A stretch of DNA of 64,000 bases. It comes from an uncultured Candidatus Poseidoniales archaeon. Lineage in GTDB: Archaea; Thermoplasmatota; Poseidoniia; Poseidoniales; Thalassarchaeaceae. Below the pieces are notes generated by a model, which did no database searches, was not told where the DNA came from, and saw only the letters and a program-made list of their open reading frames with translations. Positions 1,895 to 33,569 of the stretch are shown one piece after another; position 1 is the first letter of the stretch; the number at the start of each line of letters is the position of its first letter. The DNA lies in assembly GCA_902560445.1 (NCBI GenBank), contig CACELO010000002.1, positions 66,468-130,467 on the forward strand, written 5' to 3'. The translations under genes were made by a program, and so were the position numbers.

Positions 1895-1899
1895 TCGGG

Positions 1900-1906
1900 T
1901 TTTTTT
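1900..1906 (+). terminator. oligo-T tract (T7) directly after the stop codon; candidate archaeal terminator
   Basis: The sequence 'gggtttttttatt' lies 6 nt after the stop at 1892-1894. Archaeal RNAP terminates at T-tracts. Confidence 0.3.
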
Positions 1907-2085
1907 ATTCTAATTATAATTCCTAAATCAATACACTGAGATAGTGCAATATGCACATCGGACCGTGGGTAATTCCCCCAATTGTGGTGCCCTGTAATCA
2001 ACAACATATATCTGTGAAATGAGGCTCGCGTGGAAGCGTAGGTGTCCCTAGCCTAGGCTAAATCTTTGAATGGAATGGAATTTAC

Positions 2086-3687: not shown

Positions 3688-3713
3688 AACAAACAGAAAG
3701 TGGAGAGAGAAAA

Positions 3714-4721: not shown

Positions 4722-4760
4722 GGGCATTGATCAGATTTAGCAAAAGGAGGTATTAGCCCG

Positions 4761-6077: not shown

Positions 6078-7027
6078 GAGGTGAAATCATCGCGGACGAA
6101 GTCAAAACAGAGGGATCTTCAGATACCTCCCACCTTTATGATGGAAAGACCGTTAGGTCATCCGCGCCAAGCAGAAAAAAGGCTGCAGGTCGACTAAAGT
6201 CGAGCACTGATATCCCTAAAGATGCAATTCCAGAAGTACATGTGCCATCTTGGATTGAGTCTTTCTTCGGAGGACCAATTGTATCTTCGATGAAGTTCCT
6301 CCCAGCTAATCGAACTGTGACTAATTTACAGGTGAGCTCAGCGGGATGTCTAGTACTTCTAACAGCGCTTACCCTACTATTCACTCCGGTATCTGGAACC
6401 GCTTGGTTTGCTATAGCAAATTTAATTGGAATTCCATTAGTTGGAGGGGTTATTCACATCCTCATCATGATTATTGGTGCTATTGGAGGAGCATATGGTA
6501 TCTTCCAGCGTGACCAGAGGGCTTTGTTAGTCTCTTACGTTGCAATGCTACTTGTAACCCTGAGATTCGCAGGAAGCAAAGTAGAATTCGGATTTAACCT
6601 ACTACCTGAGCAAGAGATTCTACAGAAGGTGCTGCTAATTGCCTACGCAGTTTTCCTAGTCATGTACTTCGAATTAACCAACGGAATTATTCGATTTTCA
6701 ATGTTGGATACTTCAATTAGAACTGGAGAAGTCTACGTTATGGGAGAAGGTAAAATCATCAGGCAATATTACCGAGCGATTGGAATTACTCCAGTTGTTG
6801 CAGGAATAGTAGCCTTGCTAACCCTTCTCATCAACCTAATTATTCCTGCGATGGTCGATATATTCGATAGCGTTCAGGCAAATAGATTGAGAGAGTCGGT
6901 GGAATTAACTTCGGTGTACGGTGTAGCGCTCGGAACAGCCATGGTGTTCACGGTTATCGCAGCCGCATTTGCAGTAAACCTACCTCTACGACTACAACAA
7001 ATACAAGAAGGCCGAGCAAACAAGTAG
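6023..7027 (+). CDS. polytopic membrane protein of unknown function, last gene of the MoxR cluster; start uncertain
   Basis: 334-aa ORF with at least 6 hydrophobic segments. The ORF-track start (TTG 6023) overlaps DUF58 by 55 nt. In-frame alternatives are GTG 6242 or a downstream ATG. No canonical start follows the GGAGGTG at 6078-6084. Confidence 0.5.
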   Translation: MGTRHDARNCISRSKRILGGEIIADEVKTEGSSDTSHLYDGKTVRSSAPSRKKAAGRLKSSTDIPKDAIPEVHVPSWIESFFGGPIVSSMKFLPANRTVTNLQVSSAGCLVLLTALTLLFTPVSGTAWFAIANLIGIPLVGGVIHILIMIIGAIGGAYGIFQRDQRALLVSYVAMLLVTLRFAGSKVEFGFNLLPEQEILQKVLLIAYAVFLVMYFELTNGIIRFSMLDTSIRTGEVYVMGEGKIIRQYYRAIGITPVVAGIVALLTLLINLIIPAMVDIFDSVQANRLRESVELTSVYGVALGTAMVFTVIAAAFAVNLPLRLQQIQEGRANK

Positions 7028-18418: not shown

Positions 18419-20566
18419 TCAGTCTCTCCGACTAGCCATCGCTGCACCTAGAAGAGCCAGAGCACCAAGTATTGGACCAAATCCTGGCAATACAGGCGGA
18501 GTAGCTGATGATTCTGACGAATACAGGGAAGCCCAGGTATCGTAAAACTCCATCTTGTCAATCTCCTCACCATCATAGTCGCTCCATTCAACAGACACCT
18601 CATCTCCTGGCGAGACCAGTCCGTCCCCATCGTGATCAGTGTAAGTAATCGTAACACCTTCCGCTTCTCCACCGGTTAGTGGGATGCTGAATTCGTTTGT
18701 GCAAGTACTTAGATCCGGCTGAACCATTTGGTCTTGATCCTCGTCATAAAACTCCTCACAGTCGCTGAGGAAGTGAACTTCGAAGTCGGTGATCGGAGCG
18801 TTGAGTGTCTGATTCTCCGCGACAAATCCGGTAGCGTCATTTCGCTCCATACCATCACCATCATCATCACTGTCGTCGTCATCATGGTCATGGTGCCTGT
18901 CAGCATCATCGTGAGTATGATCGGCCCCATCATCATGGTCATGATGATAGTCTCCATCTCCATGGTGGTGGTGACCTGCATCTTCTTCTGTTTCATGATG
19001 GTCGCCATCATCACTGTCGTCGTCATCACTGTCGTCGTCATCAGATAACATGTCCACAATGCCATCGATGAAGCACTGCATCTCGTCGATGTCGATTAGG
19101 TCGCTTCCATCGTAGTCGCAATCTTCGAACAGGATTGAGACCTCGTCGTAATCCAGTTCGGGGTTTGTTGCATTGGAATCCCAGGAATCCTGGAACTCTT
19201 GGAAACTCATGTATCCATCGTCATTTGCATCTACAGATTCCATAGCCTCTTCTGGAGTAGTGGAGCCATCGCCATCATCCTCTGAACCTGACCACTCGTC
19301 TCCGTCCGCAGAGTGCTCGAATTCCTCGCTCTGTCCGAAGTCGTCAGTGCAGTGCCAGTCTGAGTCATGGTATTCACAGTAATACCACCAATTTTCCCAG
19401 TCCTCATCATCCTGAGATATCTTGCACCACCAACGAGAATCCTCTCCTGCATCAGTAGCATCAGAGTAACCCTCCCATTCGCAGTAGCCGTCATGATAAC
19501 TGTCCCAACTGATATGATTGCCATCATCATGGTGGCCGTCGTCATCGTACTCATCGGAACCGTCCTCGCAATTTTCATAGCCGTCATTCACCCAATCCCA
19601 AGGAATCCAAGTATTCCCACCATCGCATGGGAACATCTCTTCTGAGTCGTCATCACCGTGGTCATCGTGGTCGTTGACATCGTTGAATATCTCAGAATCA
19701 AACCAAACTGGAATCGAGGTTCTTGGAAGTGTGTCATCCACCTCGATGACTATTGCATCTCCCCACATCACCTCATACGTTAGTGATGAGGTCGCAGAGC
19801 CGTTGTCGCTTTCTATGCTCATGGACATAAGGTCTTGATTCTGATCTATGTGAATGGTCATAGTAATCTCTGCTCCACCCTCCGTATACTCCATTGTCAT
19901 TGTCTGGGTTTCCATATCATCACTCATAGTGATTGTAATGACTGCGTCTTCTGGTAAGTCACCATCATCATCATCATCATCCCCATCATCATCACCTCCA
20001 TCATTGAAGAGTCCGGCCTGTTCTGCGATTACCTCCAAAACATTGGGGGTTGCATCTCGAGTTTGATAGGAGCCGGTTGTTGCCTCTCCTTGAACCATCA
20101 TTCCGCCCACCAACAGGTGGACATTGACAACCTCGCCGACCTGCACATGAGTATATTCCATTTGCAATAACCCTGCAATTGAAATTGAGTTGTGAACATA
20201 GACTGAGTCATTGTCAAGATCCGCCATTACAATGTCCTCTATCTCGACATCCATCTGCATCCCCAAATCTTGGTTCCACTCGCTCGATGAAATCGACTGA
20301 GAGTATCCTGCCTTCGGACTCTCTTCTAGCATATCTTCGATACTTCCCATATCAGTCATGGCCTCGATGAAAGTCTCCGTGGTGGCTATGTAAATACAGT
20401 CTCCAACTAACTCGGCCGTGGCGTTTTCTTCGTAATTGGCTGCATTCTCGTCCATACATCCTAAGACATCGTCAACAAGTTCTTCCAAATCTTCACCAGA
20501 AAGGCAACCTGCCATTGGAGTAGCTATCAAAATTAGGCTAGCGAGTAAGGCATACGCGCGATTCAT
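18419..20566 (-). CDS. extremely acidic, His/Asp-rich surface protein with an N-terminal lipobox and a C-terminal PGF-CTERM
   Basis: Signal/lipobox 'LILIATPMAGCLSG'. EF-hand loop 'DANDDGYMSFQE'. His/Asp tract. C-terminus 'LPGFGPILGALALLGAAMASRRD'. Confidence 0.8.
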   Translation of the reverse strand: MNRAYALLASLILIATPMAGCLSGEDLEELVDDVLGCMDENAANYEENATAELVGDCIYIATTETFIEAMTDMGSIEDMLEESPKAGYSQSISSSEWNQDLGMQMDVEIEDIVMADLDNDSVYVHNSISIAGLLQMEYTHVQVGEVVNVHLLVGGMMVQGEATTGSYQTRDATPNVLEVIAEQAGLFNDGGDDDGDDDDDDGDLPEDAVITITMSDDMETQTMTMEYTEGGAEITMTIHIDQNQDLMSMSIESDNGSATSSLTYEVMWGDAIVIEVDDTLPRTSIPVWFDSEIFNDVNDHDDHGDDDSEEMFPCDGGNTWIPWDWVNDGYENCEDGSDEYDDDGHHDDGNHISWDSYHDGYCEWEGYSDATDAGEDSRWWCKISQDDEDWENWWYYCEYHDSDWHCTDDFGQSEEFEHSADGDEWSGSEDDGDGSTTPEEAMESVDANDDGYMSFQEFQDSWDSNATNPELDYDEVSILFEDCDYDGSDLIDIDEMQCFIDGIVDMLSDDDDSDDDDSDDGDHHETEEDAGHHHHGDGDYHHDHDDGADHTHDDADRHHDHDDDDSDDDGDGMERNDATGFVAENQTLNAPITDFEVHFLSDCEEFYDEDQDQMVQPDLSTCTNEFSIPLTGGEAEGVTITYTDHDGDGLVSPGDEVSVEWSDYDGEEIDKMEFYDTWASLYSSESSATPPVLPGFGPILGALALLGAAMASRRD
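18851..19045 (-). repeat. GAT/GAC/CAT-rich low-complexity coding tract (Asp/His run)
   Basis: Encodes 'SDDDDSDDDDSDDGDHHETEEDAGHHHHGDGDYHHDHDDGADHTHDDADRHHDHDDDDSDDDGDG'. It generates spurious ORFs in other frames and on the other strand. Confidence 0.8.
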
Positions 20567-21833: not shown

Positions 21834-22721
21834 TCAATTTCGAGTCCAAGATGGAATGAATACATCTCTCCAATTCGGAGTTGCAAGATATTCTTCCTCG
21901 GTAAAGAATGACCTTGCATAAATCGAAATAAAGTCGATAATTAGAACAACAATGTAGATAATAATCAGGTATGCAAATACCTTGTCATATTGTAAAAATC
22001 TAAGATACAGATCGATGTAATATCCAATTCCTCCTGCACCGACAATGCCGATTACAGTACCAGAACGGAAATTATATTCAAACATGAATATCGAGTGAGA
22101 AATTAGATCATTTGCGGCTTCAGGAATAACTACGTTAACTGCTACTTCCCAACGACTCAAGCCTATTGCATTCGCCGCATCCAAAGGAGTTTTTGTCAGA
22201 CCCTCAATTGATTCATACTGTAATTTTCCAAGATATCCCACTGTGTAAATTGTCATTGCCAGAACGCCAGCTAATGGACCTAAGCCGACTAGAATAACCA
22301 AGAAAATAGCCCAAATCAATGCTGGAAGACTCCTACATGCTGAGATAAGAAAGCGGGTAGGGTAAGATATCCATCGCGGGCTTAAATTTCTTGAAGCCAT
22401 GATTGACAAAGGTAATGTTACAACCATACCAAATACAGTTGCAACAAACGCAATCTTTAGCGTCTCAATAACTCCCTTCCAAGCGGTTGAGCAAGTGAAA
22501 TCGAAAATTGGTTGGGCAGTACAAACAGGATATGTTTGAGGCTCTAGAACGCTCATATCTGGTGGCCAAAGAGACTGAAAGAAGAATCTGACAAGATTAT
22601 CTGGGCCACCTGCTAATCTACCCCAGTCGCCAACCATTCCGTTTAGAATTACAATTGCAAGCAAAAGGAGAATCCATAGCACCAGAGCCATCTTTTCGCC
22701 ATCTACTGCTATCTTCTTCAT
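21834..22721 (-). CDS. ABC importer permease, PhnE family
   Basis: 295 aa, 6 TM. It has the binding-protein-dependent transport motif region 'IEGLTKTPLDAANAIGLSRWEVAVNVVIPEA' and a 4-nt overlap with the ATPase gene. Confidence 0.8.
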   Translation of the reverse strand: MKKIAVDGEKMALVLWILLLLAIVILNGMVGDWGRLAGGPDNLVRFFFQSLWPPDMSVLEPQTYPVCTAQPIFDFTCSTAWKGVIETLKIAFVATVFGMVVTLPLSIMASRNLSPRWISYPTRFLISACRSLPALIWAIFLVILVGLGPLAGVLAMTIYTVGYLGKLQYESIEGLTKTPLDAANAIGLSRWEVAVNVVIPEAANDLISHSIFMFEYNFRSGTVIGIVGAGGIGYYIDLYLRFLQYDKVFAYLIIIYIVVLIIDFISIYARSFFTEEEYLATPNWRDVFIPSWTRN

Positions 22722-23428
22722 GAATTCAACACCACAGCTTTTGGTTTGGTAATGAATGGATTCACTCTTCCATCATCAATAACTAGGAGGCGATTTGCCA
22801 TTGACTTGGCTCTAGAAATATCATGCTCGACAACGATTAATGCTGAATTATTATCTTTCACGTAGCTTGTCACGCTTTCCAAAACCATAGCCAATGTTTC
22901 TTCGTCTAATTCACTCAAAAATTCATCTGCTAGAATTAATCTTGGTCGCTGAGCCAATGTTCTGGCCGTTGCGACTCTTCTCTGTTGGCCACCGGACAAC
23001 CTCCTAATTGGTTCTCTTGACTTTTCCTTAAGCCCCATTTGTTGAATTGCATTGGTAACTCGTTCCTTTCTTTCCTTCCTATCATTAGTTCCAGCTCGAG
23101 CACCCAACATTACATTGTGCCTAACACTTGCATGACGAACTAAACCCAATTTTTGTGGAATATACCCTAGTGCGCCACGGAGAGGTTTCGACGGAATTTC
23201 TGCACCACACACTGTGATCGAACCGGAAATTGGACGTATTAGTCCCGCAATTGTACCAAGTAAAGTTGACTTCCCGATACCAGAAGGGCCCGCTATGGCC
23301 ACTATTTCACCAGGGAATATTTCGAGATTGGGAATACTGACTAAGGGTGATTCAGTTTCATATCCGATTACTATATCTTCGAGGGAGACAATCGGATTTT
23401 CTGAACCCATACCCTCGGACAACTCCAA
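22718..23428 (-). CDS. ABC importer ATP-binding protein, PhnC family
   Basis: Walker A 'GPSGIGKST', signature 'LSGGQQRRVATART', Walker B 'ILADEFLSELD'. Confidence 0.85.
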   Translation of the reverse strand: MELSEGMGSENPIVSLEDIVIGYETESPLVSIPNLEIFPGEIVAIAGPSGIGKSTLLGTIAGLIRPISGSITVCGAEIPSKPLRGALGYIPQKLGLVRHASVRHNVMLGARAGTNDRKERKERVTNAIQQMGLKEKSREPIRRLSGGQQRRVATARTLAQRPRLILADEFLSELDEETLAMVLESVTSYVKDNNSALIVVEHDISRAKSMANRLLVIDDGRVNPFITKPKAVVLNS

Positions 23429-23441
23429 AGCCCCCTTGTAA

Positions 23442-23457
23442 TTTAGGCGGCCCTAAA
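23442..23457. promoter_or_regulatory. 16-bp palindrome TTTAGGCGGCCCTAAA (copy 1 of 4); candidate operator
   Basis: An inverted repeat 14 nt 5' of the phnC-like ATG. ATATAT (23461-23466) lies just upstream on the transcribed strand. Confidence 0.55.
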
Positions 23458-23514: not shown

Positions 23515-25611
23515 TTATATCGATTCTTGCAAGAATGAATAGGCTCCGGGTACAACACTTACCACCTCAGATAGCAAGCCAAGATGTTCTTGTGAATTTG
23601 TTCTAACAATCCCTGTACCATCGAGTATATTGTTTAGAATTTCATCACCACAGATTTCCCTATTATTATCTGAATTTACCTTGTGTGTAGAAATATCGTA
23701 ACAACCAGTATATGTTCCAAATCCGGGTCTAGAATAATTCTCTAGATACATCTGATAATTCAAAGTAACTAAGGCGTTGAGAATAGCGGCTCTACTTCTA
23801 GAATCAAGAGTCGAAGGGTTGTACATTACAGATTCACTTGGAGACACACCGACTTGACCCAAAGATAGGTACTGGTCAATTTCCATGCACCAATCTTGAT
23901 TTTCTTGTTCTTCTTGATTACAATTTTCTTCTAGTGCATCTTCTCCGACGAATGCTATTTCACTTACATTTTCGGATAGGCAGCTAATCGCACCTACCTC
24001 TCCCGCAGGGGTGCTTGAAGATGAAAGAAGAGATGATTGATTTCCAAAATAGCCGCGTATTGTTTCGATAATCTCGACATTTTCTTGATTAGGCGAATAA
24101 TACTCATTTTCAATTAGATAATGAATAGGAAGAATTGTGTGAATTGGAGATTGAGAACCGGTGAAGCAAGACACTCTTCCCTGCATCATTGCAAATGGAT
24201 CGGTGCTAGATTCATTGTCTGAACTTGCGGTAGCCAATTCTCCTAAATTTGAGACTAAGGCCATAGAATACCGCTGAGTCAATTGATCTTTGTTTTGTAT
24301 GGCTCCTAGAACTGATAGATTATGTAATTTCCATCCAATTAACGAAGAAGATGAAGGAAGAAATCCAATATGAGCCTCGCCTGTTTCAATTGATTCAATC
24401 ATTTCTGATTGAGAATTAACATAGTGAATTGAAACATTAATTCCTAATTCTATGGATAAAAATTCGGCTAAATGAATCGGGTCACTATTGGTTTCTAATT
24501 TTGATTCATCTAGTTCAAATGCAACAATTAATTCTTCTATTGTTATTGTTATTGATTGACTTCCATTGTCGGTATAATAAGCTGAAATCCCAGGGATATT
24601 CGAAACCAGAGGCGTGTATATACCAAGATGAGATTCAGAATCTGTAGAAACTACACCCTTTGTCCCTAGTGTGTTGTAGAGAATTTCGCTGTAATCCTCG
24701 TTTGAACTAAAGTCAATTAGAAAATCCGTAAGTTCACTGATTACTAAATCATCATCAAAATTAGAATGAGTCATGAAAACATCACTGGGGGTCTTAGCGA
24801 ATGGTTCGAGAGAAACATATCTCGAGGCATCCAAACACCATTCTTCGACATTATTTCCATTTTCTGTGGTGCAGTATTGAGAGGCCGTGTTATCCTTCGC
24901 AAATGCAACCTCACCGGAACCATCTGAAAGACATCTTAGAGCCCCTGAAAATCCATAGTACTGTGTGCCAGGTTCCGGAATTGATGAGTTTTCGTTAAAG
25001 AATTGAAAAATTGTATTTCTTAGAGATTCGATATCATTTGGATCGCCAATTACATTTGCATACCCCAATCCAAGGAAGAATCCCATTGGAACCATCATTC
25101 CTGTTGAGTGTAACCAACCCGTATGGCAGGAAGTTTTGCCTTGCATCAGTGAGAATGGATTTGTTAGCGGATCATCGTCAAAATATGCTTCTGCGATATC
25201 GCTATCGTCGAGAACCCAAGCGAGAGAATTGTAGTATGTCCTGCCGTCTGATTTTTGGTCCGCTGCAAAAGCCTGCAAACCGTATTGATTCCACCCAATC
25301 CAAGCAGCACCGCTATCCATTAGAGCGATGTCGGCATTTCCAAACCTTAGTGCCTCGAGTATCGCTGCTTCTGAATCAACGGCATATATTGTAAAATCAA
25401 ATCTACTGTTTTGGGTAAGAATTTCTGCCAGCATCTCAGGATTAGTTTCTGACTCAAGCATACCTTCGGACACTTCGAATGCCAGAACAATGGGAGTTCT
25501 TGTTTGATTATTTGATTCTTCAGAATCACTCAAGCAACCAGAGAGAGTGCTAGAAAGCAGGATAATGGTATAACAAATGACCAGTATTTTGTAATGTCTT
25601 TTTGTCGGCAT
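23515..25611 (-). CDS. bilobal transferrin-like/PhnD-superfamily substrate-binding lipoprotein (two tandem PBP-type lobes)
   Basis: Lipobox 'STLSGCLSD'. Lobe 1 (about aa 40-345) and lobe 2 (about aa 350-698) are paralogous to each other and to the 28476..29546 protein. Lobe 1 carries 'TSCHTGWLHSTGMMVPMG' and 'YYGFSGALRCLSDGSGEVAFAKD'. Confidence 0.8.
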   Translation of the reverse strand: MPTKRHYKILVICYTIILLSSTLSGCLSDSEESNNQTRTPIVLAFEVSEGMLESETNPEMLAEILTQNSRFDFTIYAVDSEAAILEALRFGNADIALMDSGAAWIGWNQYGLQAFAADQKSDGRTYYNSLAWVLDDSDIAEAYFDDDPLTNPFSLMQGKTSCHTGWLHSTGMMVPMGFFLGLGYANVIGDPNDIESLRNTIFQFFNENSSIPEPGTQYYGFSGALRCLSDGSGEVAFAKDNTASQYCTTENGNNVEEWCLDASRYVSLEPFAKTPSDVFMTHSNFDDDLVISELTDFLIDFSSNEDYSEILYNTLGTKGVVSTDSESHLGIYTPLVSNIPGISAYYTDNGSQSITITIEELIVAFELDESKLETNSDPIHLAEFLSIELGINVSIHYVNSQSEMIESIETGEAHIGFLPSSSSLIGWKLHNLSVLGAIQNKDQLTQRYSMALVSNLGELATASSDNESSTDPFAMMQGRVSCFTGSQSPIHTILPIHYLIENEYYSPNQENVEIIETIRGYFGNQSSLLSSSSTPAGEVGAISCLSENVSEIAFVGEDALEENCNQEEQENQDWCMEIDQYLSLGQVGVSPSESVMYNPSTLDSRSRAAILNALVTLNYQMYLENYSRPGFGTYTGCYDISTHKVNSDNNREICGDEILNNILDGTGIVRTNSQEHLGLLSEVVSVVPGAYSFLQESI

Positions 25612-25908: not shown

Positions 25909-27144
25909 TCATTGGAGAGTTCCAATGTCTTCGGCTGTGATGCCAAATGCATCCCAGACTGGCTGTAGATAGGAGCGGATATCCGCTTCGTAATCTGCTG
26001 TTGCATCTCCATCATTCTTCAGATCGAAGATTTCGAGAATCTTGTCATTGTAGTAATTAGCATACCACCCAAATGCCTCGCACTCCTCCTCTGACATACC
26101 CTCATGCTGAGCGTGTGTCACTGAATTATAGCATCCTGTGAATTCCTCTCCACTCGGATCGTTTGGAGAAGTGTAGTTCTCCAGATACATGTATGCCTCG
26201 CAGGATGCCTGTGAGCTATCCGATGAGACCGTGTGAGATACCATGTTGTAGCAGATCGAAGTGTACTCAGCGACATATGCCTCGATTACCCTGTAGAAGG
26301 CGTGACCCTCTGCCTGGTGCTTGTCGTAGTCTGCAGTATCTCCAGCAGCTAGGTCGTCCGTCATCTTTGATGCGTACCTCACAGAAGCCTGTGAGTAGAC
26401 GATTACAATATTCTTCAGAACCTCGTCGCGTGCGTCGACTACTCCTTGCATATCTTCATTCTGAAGTGCAGTCAAGCCAGCGTTCATTGCGGCTAGAGTA
26501 GCGATGTTTGTAGCATCACCAGTCCCAAAGTTGCCCCCTCTCTTGGCAGCGGTTGCATATGGCCCACATCCATCGTAATCATGGTTGGAATCGTCAGGAC
26601 CATGGTAGAAAGCCCATCCTTCGTCCCAAGCGTGTTGAGCGTCATCGGCCCCCCAGTTTCCTGCTTCCGCCTTGATGATTGCAGCGTTGAGTTCATGGAT
26701 TGCATAAGCAGTCATCACACCATTCTGGATTCCCTTTTCGACTGCTTGATCTCTGACTGTGTCAGATTCTCCCTCGAAAGGACCTGTGCCATCAATAGCC
26801 GCAGATACGAAGTCATTCCATGAGCCGTCTGCATCATAGTATGCGTCGTAGGCGTGGTTCTTGCCGGAAGCATCTGCGAAGCCCATGAGGGTCCTGTAGG
26901 AACCGTCGGACTTCTCCGCGTGCTTTCCATCATCATAGATATCCTTCACACCGTCCCAATCGTATGCACCAGAGAGGTCCTTAATATCGCAGACATCACC
27001 CATTAACATTCGGTGATTATCAACGTTGGAAGCATACGTGTATCCTCCATCTGCGTCATCAAGATCTACATCATCTCCTGCACAACCGGCAATCGCACTG
27101 CCGATTAATACTAAAGTCATCATTAAAGTCATTGTTCTATTCAT
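25909..27144 (-). CDS. acidic lipoprotein of unknown function (mostly helical, Cys-pair modules near the C-terminus)
   Basis: Signal/lipobox 'LIGSAIAGCAGDD'. 411 aa. Two operator-like palindromes lie directly 5' of the gene. Confidence 0.7.
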   Translation of the reverse strand: MNRTMTLMMTLVLIGSAIAGCAGDDVDLDDADGGYTYASNVDNHRMLMGDVCDIKDLSGAYDWDGVKDIYDDGKHAEKSDGSYRTLMGFADASGKNHAYDAYYDADGSWNDFVSAAIDGTGPFEGESDTVRDQAVEKGIQNGVMTAYAIHELNAAIIKAEAGNWGADDAQHAWDEGWAFYHGPDDSNHDYDGCGPYATAAKRGGNFGTGDATNIATLAAMNAGLTALQNEDMQGVVDARDEVLKNIVIVYSQASVRYASKMTDDLAAGDTADYDKHQAEGHAFYRVIEAYVAEYTSICYNMVSHTVSSDSSQASCEAYMYLENYTSPNDPSGEEFTGCYNSVTHAQHEGMSEEECEAFGWYANYYNDKILEIFDLKNDGDATADYEADIRSYLQPVWDAFGITAEDIGTLQ

Positions 27145-27146
27145 AG

Positions 27147-27162
27147 TTTAGGTCTCCCTAAA
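27147..27162. promoter_or_regulatory. 16-bp palindrome TTTAGGTCTCCCTAAA (copy 2 of 4); candidate operator
   Basis: Begins 2 nt 5' of the ATG (27144) of the 411-aa lipoprotein gene. Confidence 0.55.
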
Positions 27163-27190
27163 CCGGCCGGATAGCGAATCGTATATGAAA

Positions 27191-27206
27191 TTTAGGGCGC
27201 CCTAAA
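27191..27206. promoter_or_regulatory. 16-bp perfect palindrome TTTAGGGCGCCCTAAA (copy 3 of 4); candidate operator
   Basis: Lies in the divergent intergenic region 27145-27299 and abuts the A/T-rich 'GTATATGAAA' (27181-27190). Confidence 0.55.
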
Positions 27207-27968: not shown

Positions 27969-28403
27969 ATGTTGAAGAAAATGGTCAGTACTGATGAGTT
28001 AATTGTGGCGCTAAATAATGCTCTCGCTTGGGAATTAAGGGCTATTGCAATGTATGCTCACTATTCCGCATACGTTTCAGGGATTCATAGATTACAACTT
28101 TCGGTATTCTTCAATAATGAAGTAACAGAATCAATTGCGCATGCTTCAACCGTAAGATCCGCTATAGTGAAATTACACGGTAAGGCCACTACGGAGAGGG
28201 CAGAAGACCCTATTTTACACTCAATGGACTTCCGAGATATGTTGGAAGAGGCACACAAAACTGAGTTGAAAGCTAGCGAGACATATGGAGAAATTTTACC
28301 AATGGTTGAGCAAATTGGGGATAGCGAACTTTTTGATGCCCTGGAAGTTATTTACTTTGATGAACTGAGATCTGTAGAAGAATTGAGAATGATGCTTGGT
28401 TGA
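27969..28403 (+). CDS. ferritin-like four-helix-bundle protein (bacterioferritin/Dps-like superfamily)
   Basis: 144 aa. 'ALNNALAWELRAIAMYAHYS', 'EVTESIAHASTVRSAIVKLHG', 'LEEAHKTELKA' and 'FDELRSVEE' resemble the E / E..H / E / E..H di-iron pattern. The spacing of the first E..H is one residue off. Confidence 0.55.
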   Translation: MLKKMVSTDELIVALNNALAWELRAIAMYAHYSAYVSGIHRLQLSVFFNNEVTESIAHASTVRSAIVKLHGKATTERAEDPILHSMDFRDMLEEAHKTELKASETYGEILPMVEQIGDSELFDALEVIYFDELRSVEELRMMLG

Positions 28404-28429: not shown

Positions 28430-28445
28430 TTTAGGGTGCCCTAAA
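28430..28445. promoter_or_regulatory. 16-bp palindrome TTTAGGGTGCCCTAAA (copy 4 of 4); candidate operator
   Basis: 31 nt 5' of the ATG at 28476. TTTAAA (28406-28411) lies upstream. Confidence 0.55.
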
Positions 28446-28475: not shown

Positions 28476-29546
28476 ATGGAAAAAACTAGTTGGGCTGGTT
28501 GGGCCAAAGCTAACAAAGCACTTTTGCTCGCTGGATTAGTGCTATCTGCGACCGTATTGTATCTCATTTTCGACATTAATTACGAACAATGTGATGATCA
28601 AGATAACTGTATTACAATCGCTTTTGAGGTACAAGATGACTATTTGTATTTTGGAAAAGAGAACCCTCAGCACTTGGCAGACAAAATGAGTGCTCTGACT
28701 GGTATGGATGTTGAAATAATGCCTGTATCGAATTCCGGCGCGATAATCGAGGCTATCAATAATGGCAATGCGGATATTGGATTTGTAGATGGAGCGGCCG
28801 CTTGGCTTGCATGGGAAGTTTACGATTTGGACGTGCTAGCGGCAGAGTGGAAATTTGATCAAAGGACGTACTATAATGCGGCAGCCTGGGTGAAAAAGGA
28901 CTCTGAAATTGCAGACGCGTATCTAGATGATGATCCAGATACAGACCCATTTGCTTTAATGAATGGAAAAACGTCTTGCCATACAGGATGGCTGAAAAGT
29001 GCTGGGATGTTGATTCCAATGGGTTACTTGATTGGAAATGGGTATGCCGAGGTGCGTGGAGATCCTGAAGAAATTACTTCACTACGAGATACAGTGACGC
29101 ATTTCTTCAACGAAGATTCAAGCATACCTGACGGAGGTACTCAATATTCCGGATATAAGGGGGCATTGAAGTGTATGATGACTGATCGCGGAGACGTTGC
29201 TTTAGTCAAGGATACAGCATATATGCTCTACTGTGACGAAAATGAGGACGGAATTGCAGATGGTCCTGATTGGTGTTTGGATAGAGATGAGCTCGTTATG
29301 CTCGAGTCATTTGGTCGAGCACCGAGTCACCCCGCTTTGTATAATCCCTCAGCTATGAATAACGAAACGGTCGAACTAATTCAAAATGCATTGGTGGATA
29401 TGAATAATGATGAAGAAGGTACAAAGATACTCTCCGATGTCTTAAACACTGAAGGAATGGTTGTTACGAATGCTACTGCTCACCTAGGCACATATGGTGC
29501 GGCTGTAGAGAACGTCCCTGGAATACAAGCATTTTTTGAGGATTGA
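28476..29546 (+). CDS. monolobal transferrin-like substrate-binding protein (PhnD superfamily) with N-terminal membrane anchor/signal
   Basis: Motifs 'NADIGFVDGAAAW', 'RTYYNAAAWVKKDS', 'GKTSCHTGWLKSAGMLIPMG', 'YSGYKGALKCMMTDRGDVALVKD' and 'APSHPAL' align with transferrin N-lobe ligand and anion-site motifs (recalled from the human serotransferrin sequence). Confidence 0.8.
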   Translation: MEKTSWAGWAKANKALLLAGLVLSATVLYLIFDINYEQCDDQDNCITIAFEVQDDYLYFGKENPQHLADKMSALTGMDVEIMPVSNSGAIIEAINNGNADIGFVDGAAAWLAWEVYDLDVLAAEWKFDQRTYYNAAAWVKKDSEIADAYLDDDPDTDPFALMNGKTSCHTGWLKSAGMLIPMGYLIGNGYAEVRGDPEEITSLRDTVTHFFNEDSSIPDGGTQYSGYKGALKCMMTDRGDVALVKDTAYMLYCDENEDGIADGPDWCLDRDELVMLESFGRAPSHPALYNPSAMNNETVELIQNALVDMNNDEEGTKILSDVLNTEGMVVTNATAHLGTYGAAVENVPGIQAFFED

Positions 29547-29592: not shown

Positions 29593-30798
29593 ATGAGAGT
29601 GACCATCACTATCCTAATTTTATTGATAATATCTCTATTTTCTGGATGTTTTTCAGACGATGGAGATGATTTTGATTGGACTGATCCCCAAACAACAGAG
29701 TGCAATTTAGGCAATAACCTAACTTGTACTAATTTGTTTCCGGGAGCTGGTACTCCTCATCACTCAGAAGTAAATCCTCAAACTAATGAATTATGGATAA
29801 TTTATCTCAGTGGAATGGTAAAAATTTGGCAAGATGATGAACTAATACAAGCTGGTGACTTAAGTGAAATTGTAAATAGATGCCATACAGAACAAGGATT
29901 GCTTGGATTTGCATTCGATGCCAACTATAATTCTTCCAAACAACTATTGTTATCATATGTGGAAAAAGGCAGCTGCGAAGGGGCGAATAATGCAGACCTC
30001 GTTCTTGCTTCAGTTGTTGTTACTGATGATGATATGATAAATTTGGACTCGTTAATCGTCTTGAAAACCGTAGAACAACCATACAGGAATCATAACGGGG
30101 GGCATTTACATGGTTTGGGTAATGGAGAATACCTCTGGGGAATTGGAGACGGAGGTGGAGCTAACGACCCAGAAAAGAATGGGCAGAATTCTGAAAATTT
30201 ATTGGGCACTATTGTTTACTTCCAATACTCAAATGGCGATGTTAATCCGATAATGGATTCAGAAAATGGAAACCCCTACATCTTGCACTATGGTTTGCGA
30301 AATCCATGGAAATTCGACGTGGGCCCTAATGAGGAACTATGGATTGCTGATGTCGGACAAAATTGTTGGGAAGAAATTAATTTGGTAAATTTGGTAAACA
30401 AATCAAACCTTGGGTGGTCAGAAAAAGAAGGATTCAGTGATTTTTCCGAAGGTGGAAGTTGTGAAGGAGGAGTTCTATCTGAAAATAATGAATTTACAGA
30501 CCCTGTCTTTGTCTATGGTCACAATAACGGAAATTGTTCCATAACCGGTGGCTTTTGGACTGAGAATACAATAATCTCAGACCAAGGTGGTTATCTGTTT
30601 GGAGACTTTTGTTCTGGTTCGCTATGGATTCTTTCCAATGGTGTAAATCACACATGGAAAGAGACCTATCTTGGTAACGTGGGGGGACTAATTGTAGGGT
30701 TTGGAGAAGGGGCTAATGGTGAGCTTCTGGTCTTTTTCTGGACTGGAGAAATCATACAAATCACTCAATCCGCTGCCGCCGATAGCAATATCGTGTGA
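29593..30798 (+). CDS. beta-propeller lipoprotein, PQQ-dependent glucose/sorbosone dehydrogenase-like
   Basis: Lipobox 'ISLFSGCFSDD'. 'EQGLLGFAFD', 'YRNHNGGHL', 'GDGGGANDP', 'YGLRNPWKFD' and 'ADVGQNCWEEIN' match the GSDH-family pattern. Confidence 0.7.
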   Translation: MRVTITILILLIISLFSGCFSDDGDDFDWTDPQTTECNLGNNLTCTNLFPGAGTPHHSEVNPQTNELWIIYLSGMVKIWQDDELIQAGDLSEIVNRCHTEQGLLGFAFDANYNSSKQLLLSYVEKGSCEGANNADLVLASVVVTDDDMINLDSLIVLKTVEQPYRNHNGGHLHGLGNGEYLWGIGDGGGANDPEKNGQNSENLLGTIVYFQYSNGDVNPIMDSENGNPYILHYGLRNPWKFDVGPNEELWIADVGQNCWEEINLVNLVNKSNLGWSEKEGFSDFSEGGSCEGGVLSENNEFTDPVFVYGHNNGNCSITGGFWTENTIISDQGGYLFGDFCSGSLWILSNGVNHTWKETYLGNVGGLIVGFGEGANGELLVFFWTGEIIQITQSAAADSNIV

Positions 30799-30817
30799 TA
30801 CCTGCTCCAGTATTGTG

Positions 30818-32815
30818 ATGAGACGCCAAGGCGCGCTTAGAATCGTGGTCATGATTACGATTATTGGAATGATGATTTCTTCGTTACAAATCGGCTACCA
30901 ACAAGGTGGTCTTGATGAATCTCAAGACAGAAGAGAACAGCTCGGCCCTGATGAGCCTACACTGGAGGAGCGATGTAGCGTCCTTACTTTCGAGGATATG
31001 TTTGAGTATACTAAAGCAGTATTCAATTTCACTATTGCCAATGATTGGAGTTCTGCCGAAATTGAAGCAGTTGCTTGGGTAAATGGGACTTTGGCAGATG
31101 ATGTAAGACAGAGTTTAGATGAATATATTGCACAAATCTACCCAAGTGGCGATGATGGCTGGATTTCTACCGATGAAAGGGAGGGAGTCAGAGCTATTGC
31201 TTCGGAGTGTGTTCAATACACGTTTACTAGAATGGGTATGCGTGATGGAAGTCCTCACAGAGGAGGTGACGGTACCGATTGGAAAAACACATCTTGGAAC
31301 GAAGACGAGGTCCTAGTAGAAGAATGGAATCTAGTCCCTCCTCGACATTCGGAATCGAGAGAATGTTCAGGGATTGGTAGTGGTAGCGATTGCTACGAGG
31401 TTCCGGTATATCCGGATAGTGAACGAGATTGCGACACCGAGGTAGATTCATCGAGCAGTCAAGATGAATGTAGAATGAAGTTATGGCTAAATGCTACCAT
31501 GATAATCTCCGAGATAAATGATCCAAGTGACTTCACAATAGCCTATAATGCCTCAAACATGAGTGGGGCTGAATATCATATCAAATTCCCCGTAACCGAA
31601 GGACTCCGACTAGATATGTGGGAGGAATGTGAAGGACGAGACGTGCAAGTGGATATGGGTGATTTTGCTGGTGTGGCTCCTCTGAGAGGTAGTTGTATTG
31701 GTGACGGTTCTAGCAGCTATGAACTTAATGAAAACGAAGATGGAAGTCTAACTTACTCCTTCTATCCCAACATGCCTCAGTGGCCTGTAGGAGAGGACCT
31801 GTTTGCCGACTTTACAACTGCACCAATCCCAGTGGACGACCCTCCTGTCTGGACTGATAGCGCACCGACAGATGGAGCCTGGTTCCCTCGTGCGAGTGGG
31901 GGGGCACAGATTATCGCGGACTGGAATGAAGTTCAAAATTGGTTCAATGATGAGGCTGGAGTATCGAACCTTGAGATGAATTGTAGAGGTGATGCAGGAT
32001 TAGTAATTACCTACTCACAACGAGAGTTGTCGATGGATGTACCAAGAGGTCAGGCAGGAGAGGTCACCTGTGAAGCAATCGACAGTTCTGGCCAATCCTC
32101 AGGAAATAGAACTTGGAATGTAGGAGTTCCATTCCAAATTTCAACTACAGATACTGAACTATCAGACCCACATCCGATTACTCTCTCTCCAACCGCTGGC
32201 TGGCCTGATCTATCTGTAGAACTCGGATTTTCCTCAAGCTTCGAAGAGGCAGGAACATATTACGGCCCATATTCAATCCAAGGCTCGGAAATAACTCAAG
32301 ATATTGCTGTGGTGGGACTTGTCCCCGGTCCAGTATATGTCGCTGTAATAGTAACCGGAGAAGGAGTTTATAGTTTGCAAGCGACTTATGATTTGGGGAT
32401 TCAAAAGGCCAGCAGTCCTCCAATAATGACAGTCACCACCGAAGGGTGGGATGGTAATTCATGGTCAATGAGTGGTCAATTCTCCGACCCCGATGGTGAA
32501 ACGATTAGTTTCAGCCTGATGATTGATGGGGCCTCAGTTGGAAGTATTACGGTCAGTGGCAATATGTGGTCTACACCTGCGATTGATTTCTCAGTATGGA
32601 CAGAAGGTTCACATATTGTTGAGGTTCAAGCCTGTGATGAGTCTGGCCTATGTTCAAGTCAGCAACGTAGCGTTGACAATACTCATTTGTTCGTTGATCC
32701 TGAACCTGAACCTGAACCACCGAAGGATAACTCTTCGGTTCTTCCCTCAATGGGATTGGCCGGTCTGATTCTTGCGGCATCTGCCGCACTCATATACTCG
32801 GGCCGACGCGACTGA
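30818..32815 (+). CDS. secreted acidic surface protein with Ig-like C-terminal domain and PGF-CTERM-like tail
   Basis: ORF track 30701..32815. I start at ATG 30818 (MRRQGALRIVVMITIIGMMISSLQ signal/anchor), which removes the overlap with the upstream gene. The C-terminus is 'LPSMGLAGLILAASAALIYSGRRD'. Confidence 0.7.
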   Translation: MRRQGALRIVVMITIIGMMISSLQIGYQQGGLDESQDRREQLGPDEPTLEERCSVLTFEDMFEYTKAVFNFTIANDWSSAEIEAVAWVNGTLADDVRQSLDEYIAQIYPSGDDGWISTDEREGVRAIASECVQYTFTRMGMRDGSPHRGGDGTDWKNTSWNEDEVLVEEWNLVPPRHSESRECSGIGSGSDCYEVPVYPDSERDCDTEVDSSSSQDECRMKLWLNATMIISEINDPSDFTIAYNASNMSGAEYHIKFPVTEGLRLDMWEECEGRDVQVDMGDFAGVAPLRGSCIGDGSSSYELNENEDGSLTYSFYPNMPQWPVGEDLFADFTTAPIPVDDPPVWTDSAPTDGAWFPRASGGAQIIADWNEVQNWFNDEAGVSNLEMNCRGDAGLVITYSQRELSMDVPRGQAGEVTCEAIDSSGQSSGNRTWNVGVPFQISTTDTELSDPHPITLSPTAGWPDLSVELGFSSSFEEAGTYYGPYSIQGSEITQDIAVVGLVPGPVYVAVIVTGEGVYSLQATYDLGIQKASSPPIMTVTTEGWDGNSWSMSGQFSDPDGETISFSLMIDGASVGSITVSGNMWSTPAIDFSVWTEGSHIVEVQACDESGLCSSQQRSVDNTHLFVDPEPEPEPPKDNSSVLPSMGLAGLILAASAALIYSGRRD

Positions 32816-32819
32816 GTTC

Positions 32820-33569
32820 GTGAGCTTCTCAGGCACCGTGGACAGAGAGTCGCATGAAGGGGGCCTCCTCGTTTCCTTTGAGGGACGTGCGCCGAGACTT
32901 GGGGCTACTTTACGAATAATCGGTGGAAAGCCGATTGGTAAGGTTAATTCAGTAATTGGAGCGATTGATGGGGCGTTTGTTCACATTCATCCAATTACAG
33001 ATCAAATAGAAGTCACAAGCACAATCGGCTCTCCGGTTGAAATCGCTCCAAGAGAGAAAAAAGAGTATCGTGGTCGTGGAAGAGATAGTTACTCGAAAAG
33101 AAATTCTCGCCGTGATAGGCGACATGGTGGGAATAATGACAGAAAAGGCGGAGATTGGACTTGTCCAAAGTGTAACAATTCTAATTTTGCCTTTCGAAAG
33201 AAGTGTAATCGCTGTGAAGCAGATAGGCCTCGAGATGGAGGAAGGAAATTCGAAAGAAAATTTGAACGAGGTGGTAACAATAAGCAAAAAGGAGGTGATT
33301 GGACTTGCCCTAAGTGCAACAACTCTAACTTCGCCTTCAGAGATAAATGCAATCGCTGTGATGCTAGTCGACCTAGCTCAGGTGGCAAGGCCCCCTCGAG
33401 AAGTAGATCCAACCAAAACCGAGGTCCTAGGCCTCAACGAGGCCCATCTGGACGAGGGCGAGGGCGAGCCCCGGGGAGCGCAAGTAAACCACGAAGATCT
33501 GGATTCAGAGGAACTGGCCGAGGTGGTCCTAGAGGTAATCGACCAGGAAGAGGTAGCGGTAGGCGCTGA
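32820..33569 (+). CDS. gar1: H/ACA RNP protein Gar1 fused to two RanBP2-type zinc fingers and an Arg/Gly-rich (RGG) tail
   Basis: The Gar1-like core 'GLLVSFEGRAPRLGATLRIIGGKPIGKVNSVIGAIDGAFVHIHP' has the same pattern as archaeal Gar1. Two copies of 'W-T-C-P-K-C-N-N-S-N-F-A-F-R-x-K-C-N-R-C' fit W-x-C-x2-C-x3-N-x6-C-x2-C exactly. The start is placed at GTG 32820, just after the upstream stop. Confidence 0.7.
   Translation: MSFSGTVDRESHEGGLLVSFEGRAPRLGATLRIIGGKPIGKVNSVIGAIDGAFVHIHPITDQIEVTSTIGSPVEIAPREKKEYRGRGRDSYSKRNSRRDRRHGGNNDRKGGDWTCPKCNNSNFAFRKKCNRCEADRPRDGGRKFERKFERGGNNKQKGGDWTCPKCNNSNFAFRDKCNRCDASRPSSGGKAPSRSRSNQNRGPRPQRGPSGRGRGRAPGSASKPRRSGFRGTGRGGPRGNRPGRGSGRR
33156..33359 (+). repeat. 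tandem duplication encoding the two RanBP2-type zinc fingers
   Basis: 33156-33215 and 33300-33359 encode near-identical 20-aa Cys4 units with flanking GGxxK(G)GDW context. Confidence 0.8.

Follow-up and report, generated by a model that had tools for sequence, protein, structure and literature searches.

A single-lobed, transferrin-like substrate-binding protein with an iron-type operator in an MGIIb Poseidoniales archaeon

Gene neighbourhood and a shared palindromic operator

The window, that is, the whole stretch of 64,000 nucleotides analysed here, comes from an MGIIb Poseidoniales archaeon. The gene under study (hereafter, the target) is an ORF at 28476..29546 on the + strand, which starts with ATG and encodes 356 aa; the limits given in an earlier note made from the sequence are correct and all peptides quoted there are found in the translation. 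The protein opens with Lys-rich residues and an N-terminal signal-anchor helix (~residues 14–32), has a single lobe of ~315 aa, and contains two Cys pairs, C168/C233 and C253/C267. It is most likely an extracellular, membrane-anchored solute-binding protein (SBP) of a Thermoplasmatota branch of the transferrin family.

A ferritin-like protein of 144 aa (27969..28403, + strand; Pfam Ferritin, 58.3 bits) is encoded 73 bp upstream of the target. The two are neighbours in only 2 of 88 loci; for want of conservation, the link between the genes is weak and was rejected as evidence for a role in iron metabolism. On the other side, 46 bp after the target and co-directional with it, lies a gene for a GSDH-like beta-propeller protein (29593..30798, + strand; Pfam GSDH, 79.6 bits), which probably shares the target's transcript. 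This gene occupies the same position in loci L001–L006 and occurs within 6 kb in 26 of the 38 well-flanked loci. The next gene (30701..32815, + strand) encodes a surface protein of ~680 aa with an Ig-like domain (weak Big_9 match) and a C-terminal anchor. Its true start is probably near 30812; the orthologs measure 667–678 aa and have their own copy of the operator described below, which lies upstream in 11 loci.

The genes of the - strand include that of a 411-aa FEA1-related lipoprotein (25909..27144), with 69.7 bits to Pfam Fea1 and 358 bits to NCBIfam NF038033 (cut-off 250). The Fea1 family (PF07692), which holds algal FEA1, also takes in diatom ISIP2a/phytotransferrin. The lipoprotein gene is accompanied by one for a 698-aa, bilobal, lipobox-anchored paralog of the target (23515..25611), by that of an ABC transporter ATP-binding protein (22718..23428; Pfam ABC_tran, 110 bits) whose best family is PhnC (TIGR02315, 132.5 bits, cut-off 266), and by that of a PhnE-type ABC permease (21834..22721; Pfam BPD_transp_1), which scores 233.7 bits against the PhnE equivalog TIGR01097 (cut-off 216.7).

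The earlier note held that the target still works with an ABC importer, a claim for which the related loci give support. The target gene itself stands alone on the + strand, and within the window it is the bilobal paralog, with its degenerate sites, whose gene directly adjoins those of the ABC pair. On the other hand, the PhnC/PhnE-type pair lies just 5 kb away behind the same operator, and orthologs of the target are found closer to such genes. In loci L004–L006 the ortholog is divergent from the ABC genes across a 78-bp gap, while in L007 and L008 a canonical SBP member, ABC_tran and BPD_transp_1 form one tight operon. The neighbourhood of the target's own type was read through protein P0003, which is 96% identical to the target. 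Overall, an ABC ATPase is encoded within 6 kb in 25 of the 38 well-flanked loci and a permease in 24; about one third have no ABC genes within this distance. Loci L004–L006 also contain a FecCD/Peripla_BP_2 system and a HugZ-like gene, and the annotated neighbourhoods of L001–L008 showed neither C-P lyase nor phosphonatase genes nor any of pho type.

Four exact copies of the palindrome TTTAGG-N4-CCTAAA lie in the window, where chance would give 0.15. One copy, TTTAGGGTGCCCTAAA (28430..28445), is placed 30 bp upstream of the target ATG, and another, TTTAGGCGGCCCTAAA (23442..23457), 14 bp upstream of the start codon of the ABC ATPase. The remaining two (27147-27162 and 27191-27206, together 27147..27206) share one intergenic region, flanked by the FEA1-like gene (- strand) and a GDPD-like gene (+ strand). 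The element is present in 82 of the 88 related loci, across MGIIa, MGIIb and MGIII: it precedes the target ortholog in 78 loci (median distance to the start codon, 30 bp), FEA1-like genes in 31 and the ABC ATPase in 25. In related loci it is also found ahead of the genes for a flavodoxin, a ferrochelatase and a ZIP-M28 fusion, and ahead of one for a DtxR-family repressor with Fe_dep_repress, Fe_dep_repr_C and FeoA domains; this repressor gene was seen in one locus only, and no DtxR gene was detected in the window, either among the scanned ORFs or by tblastn. The operator-linked gene set has the make-up of an iron-type regulon. Its DtxR-type character gives the iron role proposed in the earlier note an independent support, and through its conserved operator the iron regulon can readily be traced in this uncultured order of archaea.

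Family membership and the transferrin-type site

In a phmmer search of the PDB, the best 60 matches of the target are all transferrin-family proteins (top E = 3.4e-20), covering transferrins, lactoferrins, ovotransferrins and melanotransferrin. Pfam Transferrin (PF00405) recognizes the target with 64.9 bits (cut-off 20.3, E = 9.6e-18) and has a match in all of the best 120 homologs. The top Pfam family is Phosphonate-bd (PF12974), with 82.4 bits (cut-off 27); at 82 vs 65 bits it does not score far better than Transferrin, the outcome that the earlier note had named as speaking against its proposal. The target falls far below the cut-offs of NCBIfam PhnD (TIGR03431; 30 bits, cut-off 261) and of TIGR01098 (46.6 bits, cut-off 112), and in Pfam score space the family lies between PhnD and transferrin. 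In fold searches, transferrins and PhnD-type anion binders are not told apart, the target being equally near AioX, PtxB, HtxB and a phosphate binder; by both sequence and fold it is not a member of the FbpA cluster.

The family profile matches just 598 of 1.84e9 cluster representatives (E <= 1e-3), and the Cys-bearing proteins among 20 matches looked up by name belong to Thermoplasmatota/Poseidoniales or are eukaryotic transferrin-like proteins. Members span MGIIa, MGIIb, MGIII and other Thermoplasmatota. An occurrence in bacteria was considered and rejected, since each of the four "bacterial" MAG contigs bears the MGII-specific operator; they are probably mis-binned. JGI labels members of the family as phosphate/phosphonate SBPs.

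The residues of the site were compared with those of the human serotransferrin N-lobe, using as reference residues 1–331 identical to PDB 3ve1_B. In the L-INS-i alignment, D105, Y133, Y227 and H285 of the target correspond to D63, Y95, Y188 and H249 of serotransferrin, T170 and K174 to T120 and R124, and C168/C233 to C118/C194; the HMMER alignment with ovotransferrin has the same register. The equivalents of D105, Y133, Y227, H285, T170 and K174 are each kept in 123–125 of 126 archaeal lobes (each of the four Fe3+ ligands in 123), Lys replacing Arg124 in 123 of them, and A176 and G177 at the N-terminus of helix 5 (Ala126-Gly127 of transferrin) are conserved as well. Both Cys equivalents, which in transferrin link the Tyr188 segment with the anion loop by a conserved disulfide, occur in all 126 lobes and are missing from the nearest PhnD-like relatives. 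A set of 84 single-lobe homologs shows no variation at D105, Y227 and H285, while Y133 is conserved in at least 90%. Thus, the transferrin-type site recognized in the earlier note, with its six residues and the partner Cys of the SCHTG cysteine, is present and nearly invariant. Some eukaryotic transferrin lobes, namely ichthyosporean, algal and amphioxus ones, likewise have Lys in place of Arg124.

At the four ligand positions, the solved anion binders have G/Y/H/G (E. coli PhnD) and G/Y/H/Q (PtxB). The anion loop of the target reads W-L-K-S-A-G, where PtxB, PhnD and the protein P0243 have an S/T-rich loop. The earlier note had equated the S-T-S-G of PhnD with C-H-T-G of the target. Both do lie in one and the same anion loop, at the start of the helix, but they are not equivalent in exact register: based on a by-eye, ungapped comparison with P0243 and on the hmmalign signature, S-T-S-G aligns with K174-S175-A176-G177 (R124-G127 of human transferrin), a few residues from C-H-T-G. 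Furthermore, the nearest archaeal relatives that lack the Cys pair, annotated as phosphate, phosphite or phosphonate binders, also retain the D, Y, T, Y and H, so that metal binding may not follow from these residues by themselves.

The target does not have the bilobal architecture, and the equivalents of C9-C48 and C19-C39 are missing in its alignment with serotransferrin. Bilobal forms do occur within the same archaeal family. In the bilobal paralog of the window the sites are non-canonical, with D/Y/F/D and a His at the Arg124 position in lobe 1 and P/R/E/E in lobe 2.

Phylogenetic position and probable function

A crude, distance-based NJ tree, built only from lobes whose origin is known, separates the Cys-less PhnD-like proteins from the archaeal and eukaryotic Cys-bearing lobes with 98% bootstrap. 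The eukaryotic lobes form a single clade (95%) that is nested inside the archaeal proteins, rather than being sister to them or outside; the eukaryotic lobes nearest to the family are those of marine protists. A BLOSUM-distance NJ tree, with 14–58% support, was set aside. The grouping with eukaryotic transferrins and the intermediate Pfam scores agree with the designation "proto-transferrin" of the earlier note. The target has the look of a surviving prokaryotic relative of transferrin; the nesting in this distance tree may indicate the direction of descent between archaea and eukaryotes.

For transferrin, a PhnD-like ancestry has been proposed from phylogeny. The archaeal family would be an intermediate, with the full iron/carbonate site and an ABC transporter still served, and it is easily testable since it consists of one soluble domain. 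Literature searches for an archaeal or prokaryotic transferrin, for MGII together with transferrin and for PF00405 retrieved no description of such proteins, and neither did they retrieve a prokaryotic protein combining a complete iron/carbonate site with an ABC-transporter role; the supplementary trees of McQuaid 2018 may include such sequences. An MGII transcriptome paper has nothing on a transferrin-like system.

We consider it probable that the target binds Fe(III) together with a synergistic anion and supplies an ABC importer. It would capture unchelated Fe(III) from seawater in its transferrin-type site, the metal being coordinated by the tyrosinates Y133 and Y227, the aspartate D105 and the histidine H285, while T170 and K174, with the N-terminus of the next helix, would hold a synergistic oxyanion (carbonate, possibly phosphate). 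The lobe would then close and dock on the PhnE/PhnC-type importer, through which the iron would enter the cell. By all sequence criteria the permease in question is a phosphonate-type PhnE, and no PhnE-type permease is known to carry iron. We infer that a DtxR-family metal-dependent repressor, presumably responding to iron, would bind TTTAGG-N4-CCTAAA where it overlaps the promoters, and that it would control the target together with the ABC genes and the FEA1-like lipoprotein and, in relatives, with the flavodoxin, ferrochelatase and ZIP permease genes.

Three other explanations have to be weighed against Fe(III) binding. The target could be a phosphate, phosphite or phosphonate (or other oxyanion) binder of a PhnCDE-type importer, in which the transferrin-like residues merely hydrogen-bond the anion. 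In favour of this are Phosphonate-bd as the top Pfam family, a permease above the PhnE equivalog cut-off next to an ATPase closest to PhnC, a fold as near to AioX, PtxB, HtxB and a phosphate binder as to transferrins, and Cys-less relatives that combine D/Y/Y/H with a PhnD-type loop; the JGI names and the MGII papers that give phosphonate transport as a core trait point the same way. The specific PhnD models are nevertheless missed by a wide margin, the transferrin-like K-S-A-G stands where phosph(on)ate binders have their S/T-rich loop, and two Tyr with Asp and His are not combined in the solved PhnD and PtxB. Moreover, the neighbourhoods of L001–L008 are free of C-P lyase, phosphonatase and pho-type genes, and the genes with which it shares the operator (flavodoxin, ferrochelatase, FEA1, ZIP and a DtxR-type repressor) do not make up a phosphorus regulon. 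We therefore regard oxyanion transport as unlikely.

The ligand might also be another hard metal (Mn, Zn, Ti(IV), Al, Ga or a lanthanide), under a regulon for Mn/Zn or for metals in general. Some DtxR-family regulators sense Mn or Zn rather than Fe, a ZIP-family permease belongs to the regulon, and transferrins take many tri- and tetravalent ions in vitro, with PDB entries containing Ti, Bi, Yb, Al and Cr. This appears quite unlikely, considering that the exact set of D/Y/Y/H, T and a basic residue is the Fe3+-carbonate site of transferrins, and that flavodoxin, ferrochelatase and the FEA1-like protein in the regulon, with FecCD and the HugZ-like gene nearby, are iron-specific hallmarks. Finally, the protein could be a transferrin acquired horizontally from a eukaryote, sequestering or concentrating iron at the surface rather than docking on an ABC permease. 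It has its own TM anchor, its gene is not co-operonic with the ABC genes of the window, about a third of the well-flanked loci are devoid of such genes within 6 kb, marine protists supply the closest eukaryotic lobes, and, according to a suggestion in PMC7676907, FEA1 would serve to concentrate iron on the outside of the cell. Against this stand the tight SBP-ATPase-permease operon with a canonical member in L007/L008, the operator common to target and ABC genes, the breadth of the family across MGIIa, MGIIb, MGIII and other Thermoplasmatota, the nesting of the eukaryotic clade (95%) in the archaeal proteins, and the presence of cysteines for a single transferrin disulfide, which fits an ancestral rather than a derived form. 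A horizontal origin is thus very unlikely in our opinion.

The link of an SBP bearing the transferrin residue set with an ABC importer, and its iron-type control, suggest that the MGII "phosphonate transporter" may import iron. MGII are described in the literature as the most abundant planktonic archaea in the surface ocean; "transport of phosphonates" is listed among their core traits (PMC6336850), and PF00405 was deliberately left out of prokaryotic binding-protein transcript counts (PMC11485210). If the system carries iron, both the listing and the exclusion misassign an iron-acquisition system of most sampled MGII genomes, whose reading would change from "phosphonate transport" to iron acquisition. 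A broader reading, which we offer only tentatively, is that eukaryotic transferrins derive from an ABC binding protein of MGII-like Thermoplasmatota and that the system is the main carbonate-dependent inorganic-iron uptake of MGII, so far wrongly counted as "phosphonate transport" and absent from the inventories of marine SBPs and iron genes. Were this true, archaeal iron uptake would be sensitive to ocean carbonate chemistry, as with diatom phytotransferrin.

Comparison with known systems

The closest known system is that of the eukaryotic transferrins (PF00405), especially the ichthyosporean, green-algal and amphioxus lobes. Unlike these, the target is prokaryotic, consists of a single lobe of ~315 aa with an N-terminal membrane anchor, and has the cysteines of only one of their disulfides plus a private C253/C267 pair. 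It is also without the dilysine trigger, K245 being present and the K296 equivalent being Thr. Receptor-mediated endocytosis is not possible for it, delivery presumably being to the ABC permease, and its gene is under a DtxR-type operator.

PhnD, PtxB, HtxB and AioX share with the target the fold, the clan and PhnC/PhnE-type transporter partners, and the Tyr95 equivalent is common to the target and PhnD (Tyr93). In comparison with them, the target gains Asp, a second Tyr, His and the Cys pair, has K-S-A-G in place of the S/T-rich loop, fails the NCBIfam PhnD models and belongs to an iron-type rather than a phosphorus-type regulon. The mechanism proposed here is that of the "bacterial transferrins" FbpA, FutA and HitA of FbpABC-type systems, in which naked Fe3+ is bound through tyrosinates and a synergistic anion and passed to an ABC importer.

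With ISIP2a and FEA1 the likeness would be one of ecological role, the carbonate-dependent capture of unchelated marine Fe(III). According to the account of McQuaid 2018 given in PMC7676907, phytotransferrin and transferrin have been proposed to share an origin among phosphonate-binding proteins. The target has no Fea1 match, and ISIP2a acts by endocytosis in eukaryotes; in the window, a FEA1-related lipoprotein is encoded close to the target and has its operator in common.

Placement of the target between two Pfam families

The open reading frame at 28476..29546 (+) encodes a protein of 356 aa, and its translation contains all the peptides which the earlier note had matched motif by motif to the serotransferrin N-lobe. 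Human serotransferrin served as the reference; its residues 1-331 are identical to those of PDB 3ve1_B, and each of its twelve known ligand and anion sites carries the expected residue. For site mapping, 126 archaeal lobes and both human lobes were aligned with MAFFT L-INS-i. Here D105, Y133, Y227 and H285 of the target correspond to human D63, Y95, Y188 and H249, T170 and K174 to T120 and R124, and C168/C233 to C118/C194. The register is identical in HMMER's independent alignment with ovotransferrin. Since the top 60 proteins in a PDB sequence search belong to the transferrin family throughout (best E = 3.4e-20) and Pfam Transferrin exceeds its cut-off (64.9 against 20.3 bits), the similarity to transferrins goes beyond chance.

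In the comparison of bit scores proposed in the earlier note, Phosphonate-bd also matches the target, with a higher score (82.4 bits). The target falls below the cut-offs of the NCBIfam PhnD equivalog (30 vs 261 bits) and of the phosphate/phosphite/phosphonate subfamily model (46.6 vs 112 bits). When relatives were scanned with Pfam, Phosphonate-bd and Transferrin bits formed a smooth gradient, from the Cys-less Nitrosopumilus protein P0243 (151 and no Transferrin match) through a Heimdallarchaeota protein (P0225; 95 and 36), the target (82 and 65) and proteins of other Thermoplasmatota (P0141, 86 and 80; P0139, 54 and 63) to those of the ichthyosporean Abeoforma (P0166; 47 and 113) and Ginkgo (P0269; 33 and 144). 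On this gradient the archaeal transferrin-like family lies midway between the two Pfam families. Database labels for the archaeal homologs range from 'hypothetical' and 'PhnD/SsuA/transferrin family substrate-binding protein' to 'ABC-type phosphate/phosphonate transport system substrate-binding protein' and even 'melanoma-associated antigen p97'.

Gene neighbourhood and a shared palindrome

The target is solitary on the + strand, about 5 kb from a four-gene row on the - strand. This row comprises a FEA1-related lipoprotein (25909..27144 (-); NCBIfam NF038033, 358 bits; Pfam Fea1), a lipobox-anchored bilobal transferrin-like lipoprotein of 698 aa (23515..25611 (-)) directly upstream of the ABC genes, an ABC ATPase with PhnC as best family match, below cut-off, and a permease which passes the PhnE equivalog (233.7 bits, cut-off 216.7). 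Pfam Fea1 is the family of the diatom phytotransferrin ISIP2a; both proposed lineages of carbonate-dependent iron binders, FEA1-related and transferrin-like, are thus represented in one archaeal locus. Unexpectedly, the sites of the bilobal paralog are non-canonical: at the Asp63/Tyr95/Tyr188/His249 positions lobe 1 reads D/Y/F/D and has His in place of Arg124, and lobe 2 reads P/R/E/E. Several more MGII bilobal proteins show similar decay and others have both sites intact, which parallels the lobe decay also found in melanotransferrin and insect transferrins.

In loci L004-6 of MGII relatives, a TM-anchored ortholog (68% identical) is divergent from the ATPase and permease genes across a 78 bp gap, with no intervening bilobal gene, while in loci L007/8 the SBP, ATPase and permease genes form one tight operon, the SBP being a canonical lipobox member. 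Flanks of 4 kb or more on both sides are available for 38 loci; 25 of these have an ATPase, and 24 a permease, no more than 6 kb away. Gene linkage in relatives thus supports the suggestion of a continuing partnership with an ABC importer.

Other neighbours were also recorded. Co-directional with the target and conserved in synteny are a GSDH-like beta-propeller (29593..30798 (+)) and then a ~680-aa Ig-domain surface protein (30701..32815 (+)). We discounted as evidence for iron a ferritin-like (Dps-like) gene (27969..28403 (+)) that ends 73 bp before the target, because just 2 of 88 related loci share this adjacency, which suggests a lineage-specific insertion. In L004-L006 (positions 1..6571) the island also carries a flavodoxin, a Peripla_BP_2/FecCD/ABC system and a HugZ-like (PNPOx/DUF2470) gene, which suggests a larger island for the acquisition of iron and perhaps also heme. 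Farther off, the product of 32772..33569 (+) combines two zinc ribbons of the RanBP2 type (68.5 bits in Pfam), a domain known mostly from eukaryotes, with an Arg/Gly-rich tail. That of 18419..20566 (-), 715 aa long, weakly matches LDL-receptor class A, EF-hand and PGF-CTERM and is probably a surface protein that binds calcium.

Reading of the intergenic DNA revealed the palindrome TTTAGG-N4-CCTAAA at four places in the window: one copy 30 bp upstream of the target ATG (28430-28445), two that separate the FEA1-like gene from the GDPD-like gene (27147-27162 and 27191-27206), and one 14 bp ahead of the start codon of the ABC ATPase (23442-23457). Only 0.15 exact matches are expected in 64 kb, and none of 100 shuffles reached four. 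The palindrome recurs in 82 of the 88 related loci, down to ~51% protein identity and including MGIII. When the genes reading away from each of 144 instances were classified, the motif was found upstream of transferrin-like genes of the target type in 78 loci and of the bilobal type in 5, of FEA1-like genes in 31, of the ABC ATPase in 25, of the ~680-aa surface protein in 11, of ferrochelatase in 4, of a gene joining a ZIP permease to an M28 peptidase domain in 3, and of a flavodoxin and, in MGIII, a DtxR-family repressor in one each. This repressor (domains Fe_dep_repress, Fe_dep_repr_C and FeoA) is divergent from a transferrin-like gene, with two palindromes between them. The half-sites TTAGG/CCTAA resemble those of the DtxR/IdeR iron box, with a different spacing. 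The palindrome thus marks out an iron-type regulon that takes in these transferrin-like, FEA1-like, ABC, flavodoxin, ferrochelatase, ZIP-M28 and repressor genes, and we propose it as a candidate iron box of Poseidoniales.

Proposed role and alternatives

Taken as a whole, the target is probably an Fe(III)/synergistic-anion-binding lobe feeding a PhnE/PhnC-type importer under DtxR-type control. A type-II-anchored extracellular lobe would use two tyrosinates, an Asp and a His as Fe(III) ligands, with the synergistic oxyanion held by Thr170, Lys174 and a helix N-terminus; lobe closure would then be followed by iron delivery to the importer, and transcription would be set by a DtxR-type repressor at an operator overlapping the promoter. 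What the sequences show directly is the homology, the conservation, the linkage and the cis-element; which metal and anion are bound, the docking on the importer and the specificity of the regulator are inferred.

Phosphonate transport is counted as a core trait in a survey of MGII genomes (PMC6336850), the Phosphonate-bd score of the target is the higher one, and D/Y/Y/H alone may be insufficient as proof of metal binding; nonetheless, that the target is a true oxyanion or phosphonate binder seems unlikely to us. Flavodoxin, ferrochelatase and FEA1, together with the FecCD and HugZ-like neighbours, point to iron rather than phosphorus. We give slightly less credence still to the binding of another metal, set against the same genes. 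Least probable is a horizontally acquired transferrin serving sequestration and not transport, to be read beside the ABC linkage and the lobe tree described below.

Distribution, origin and comparison with PhnD and transferrins

The target gene is 98% identical to its counterpart in a Candidatus Thalassarchaeum (MGIIb) MAG, and as archaeal markers the window has a type II 3-dehydroquinate synthase and a PGF-CTERM match, weak and below threshold. When one genome from each GTDB species was scanned from motif seeds, 392 stretches were confirmed; the 80 best loci come from MGIIa and MGIIb Poseidoniales and, in addition, from one MGIII MAG. Apparent bacterial occurrences, on contigs labelled Rhodobacteraceae, Pedosphaera, Yoonia and Deltaproteobacteria (L035, L059, L074, L076), were rejected: all four MAG or SAG contigs bear the MGII transferrin-like gene with the MGII operator, and probably reflect binning or sorting contamination. 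Of 1.84 billion cluster representatives searched with a profile, only 598 matched at E <= 1e-3, among them single-lobe lipoproteins (one of which is labelled Thermoplasmatota), mono- and bilobal MGII forms and eukaryotic transferrins. The top-scoring eukaryotic proteins were from Ichthyosporea and a green alga, not vertebrates, and the eukaryotic lobes closest to the archaeal profile are ichthyosporean. Some eukaryotic proteins are giants whose transferrin lobes number from 4 to at least 7; in most of these lobes the ligand signature is intact and Lys takes the place of Arg124. We resolved 5 lobes in Chromosphaera P0124 (1894 aa), 7 in Bryopsis P0137 (2619 aa) and 4 in Branchiostoma P0148 (2661 aa).

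In a neighbour-joining tree of 33 lobes of assigned origin (Kimura distances, 268 profile columns), the Cys-less PhnD-like proteins split from all other lobes with 98% bootstrap, the lobes of Ichthyosporea, amphioxus, Ginkgo and human come together in a single eukaryotic clade (95%), and a single archaeal transferrin-like clade appears in just 2% of replicates; earlier versions had weak support. Rooted on the PhnD-like proteins, this crude tree, a distance method applied to divergent sequences, nests eukaryotic transferrins somewhere inside a paraphyletic archaeal grade. Such nesting is opposite to the expected effect of long-branch attraction between eukaryotes and outgroup, and we treat an archaeal origin of transferrin as a favoured hypothesis. 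Full-text literature searches returned no description of an archaeal or prokaryotic transferrin, although the trees of McQuaid et al. (2018) may include such sequences, and a recent marine study left PF00405 out of its prokaryotic SBP counts (PMC11485210). The new aspect would be a transferrin-type site in the binding protein of a prokaryotic ABC transporter.

All of the 126 archaeal lobes have both cysteines, and 125 have the carbonate Thr; the Asp, each Tyr, the His and the Lys that replaces Arg124 are conserved in 123 apiece. D105, T170, K174, Y227, H285, C168 and C233 are invariant in 84 single-lobe homologs. Solved PhnD and PtxB structures, linked via the Nitrosopumilus relative, differ: with S/T-rich anion loops, E. 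coli PhnD has G/Y/H/G at the four ligand positions (its Asp205 being the next residue along) and P. stutzeri PtxB G/Y/H/Q. By this comparison the Tyr95 equivalent is the only ancestral ligand, and the transferrin-type site is not a general PhnD feature. D/Y/Y/H is nevertheless older than the cysteine pair and the Lys/Arg, because the four closest Cys-less archaeal PhnD-type binders (P0243, P0225, P0234 and P0260) retain D, Y, T, Y and H but have a T-G-S-S-G anion loop and lack both the basic residue and the cysteines; they could be an earlier stage, or proteins that bind a metal together with phosph(on)ate. As for the Lys, it also occupies the Arg124 position in lobes from Ichthyosporea, Bryopsis and Branchiostoma, and is thus a natural variant among undoubted transferrins.
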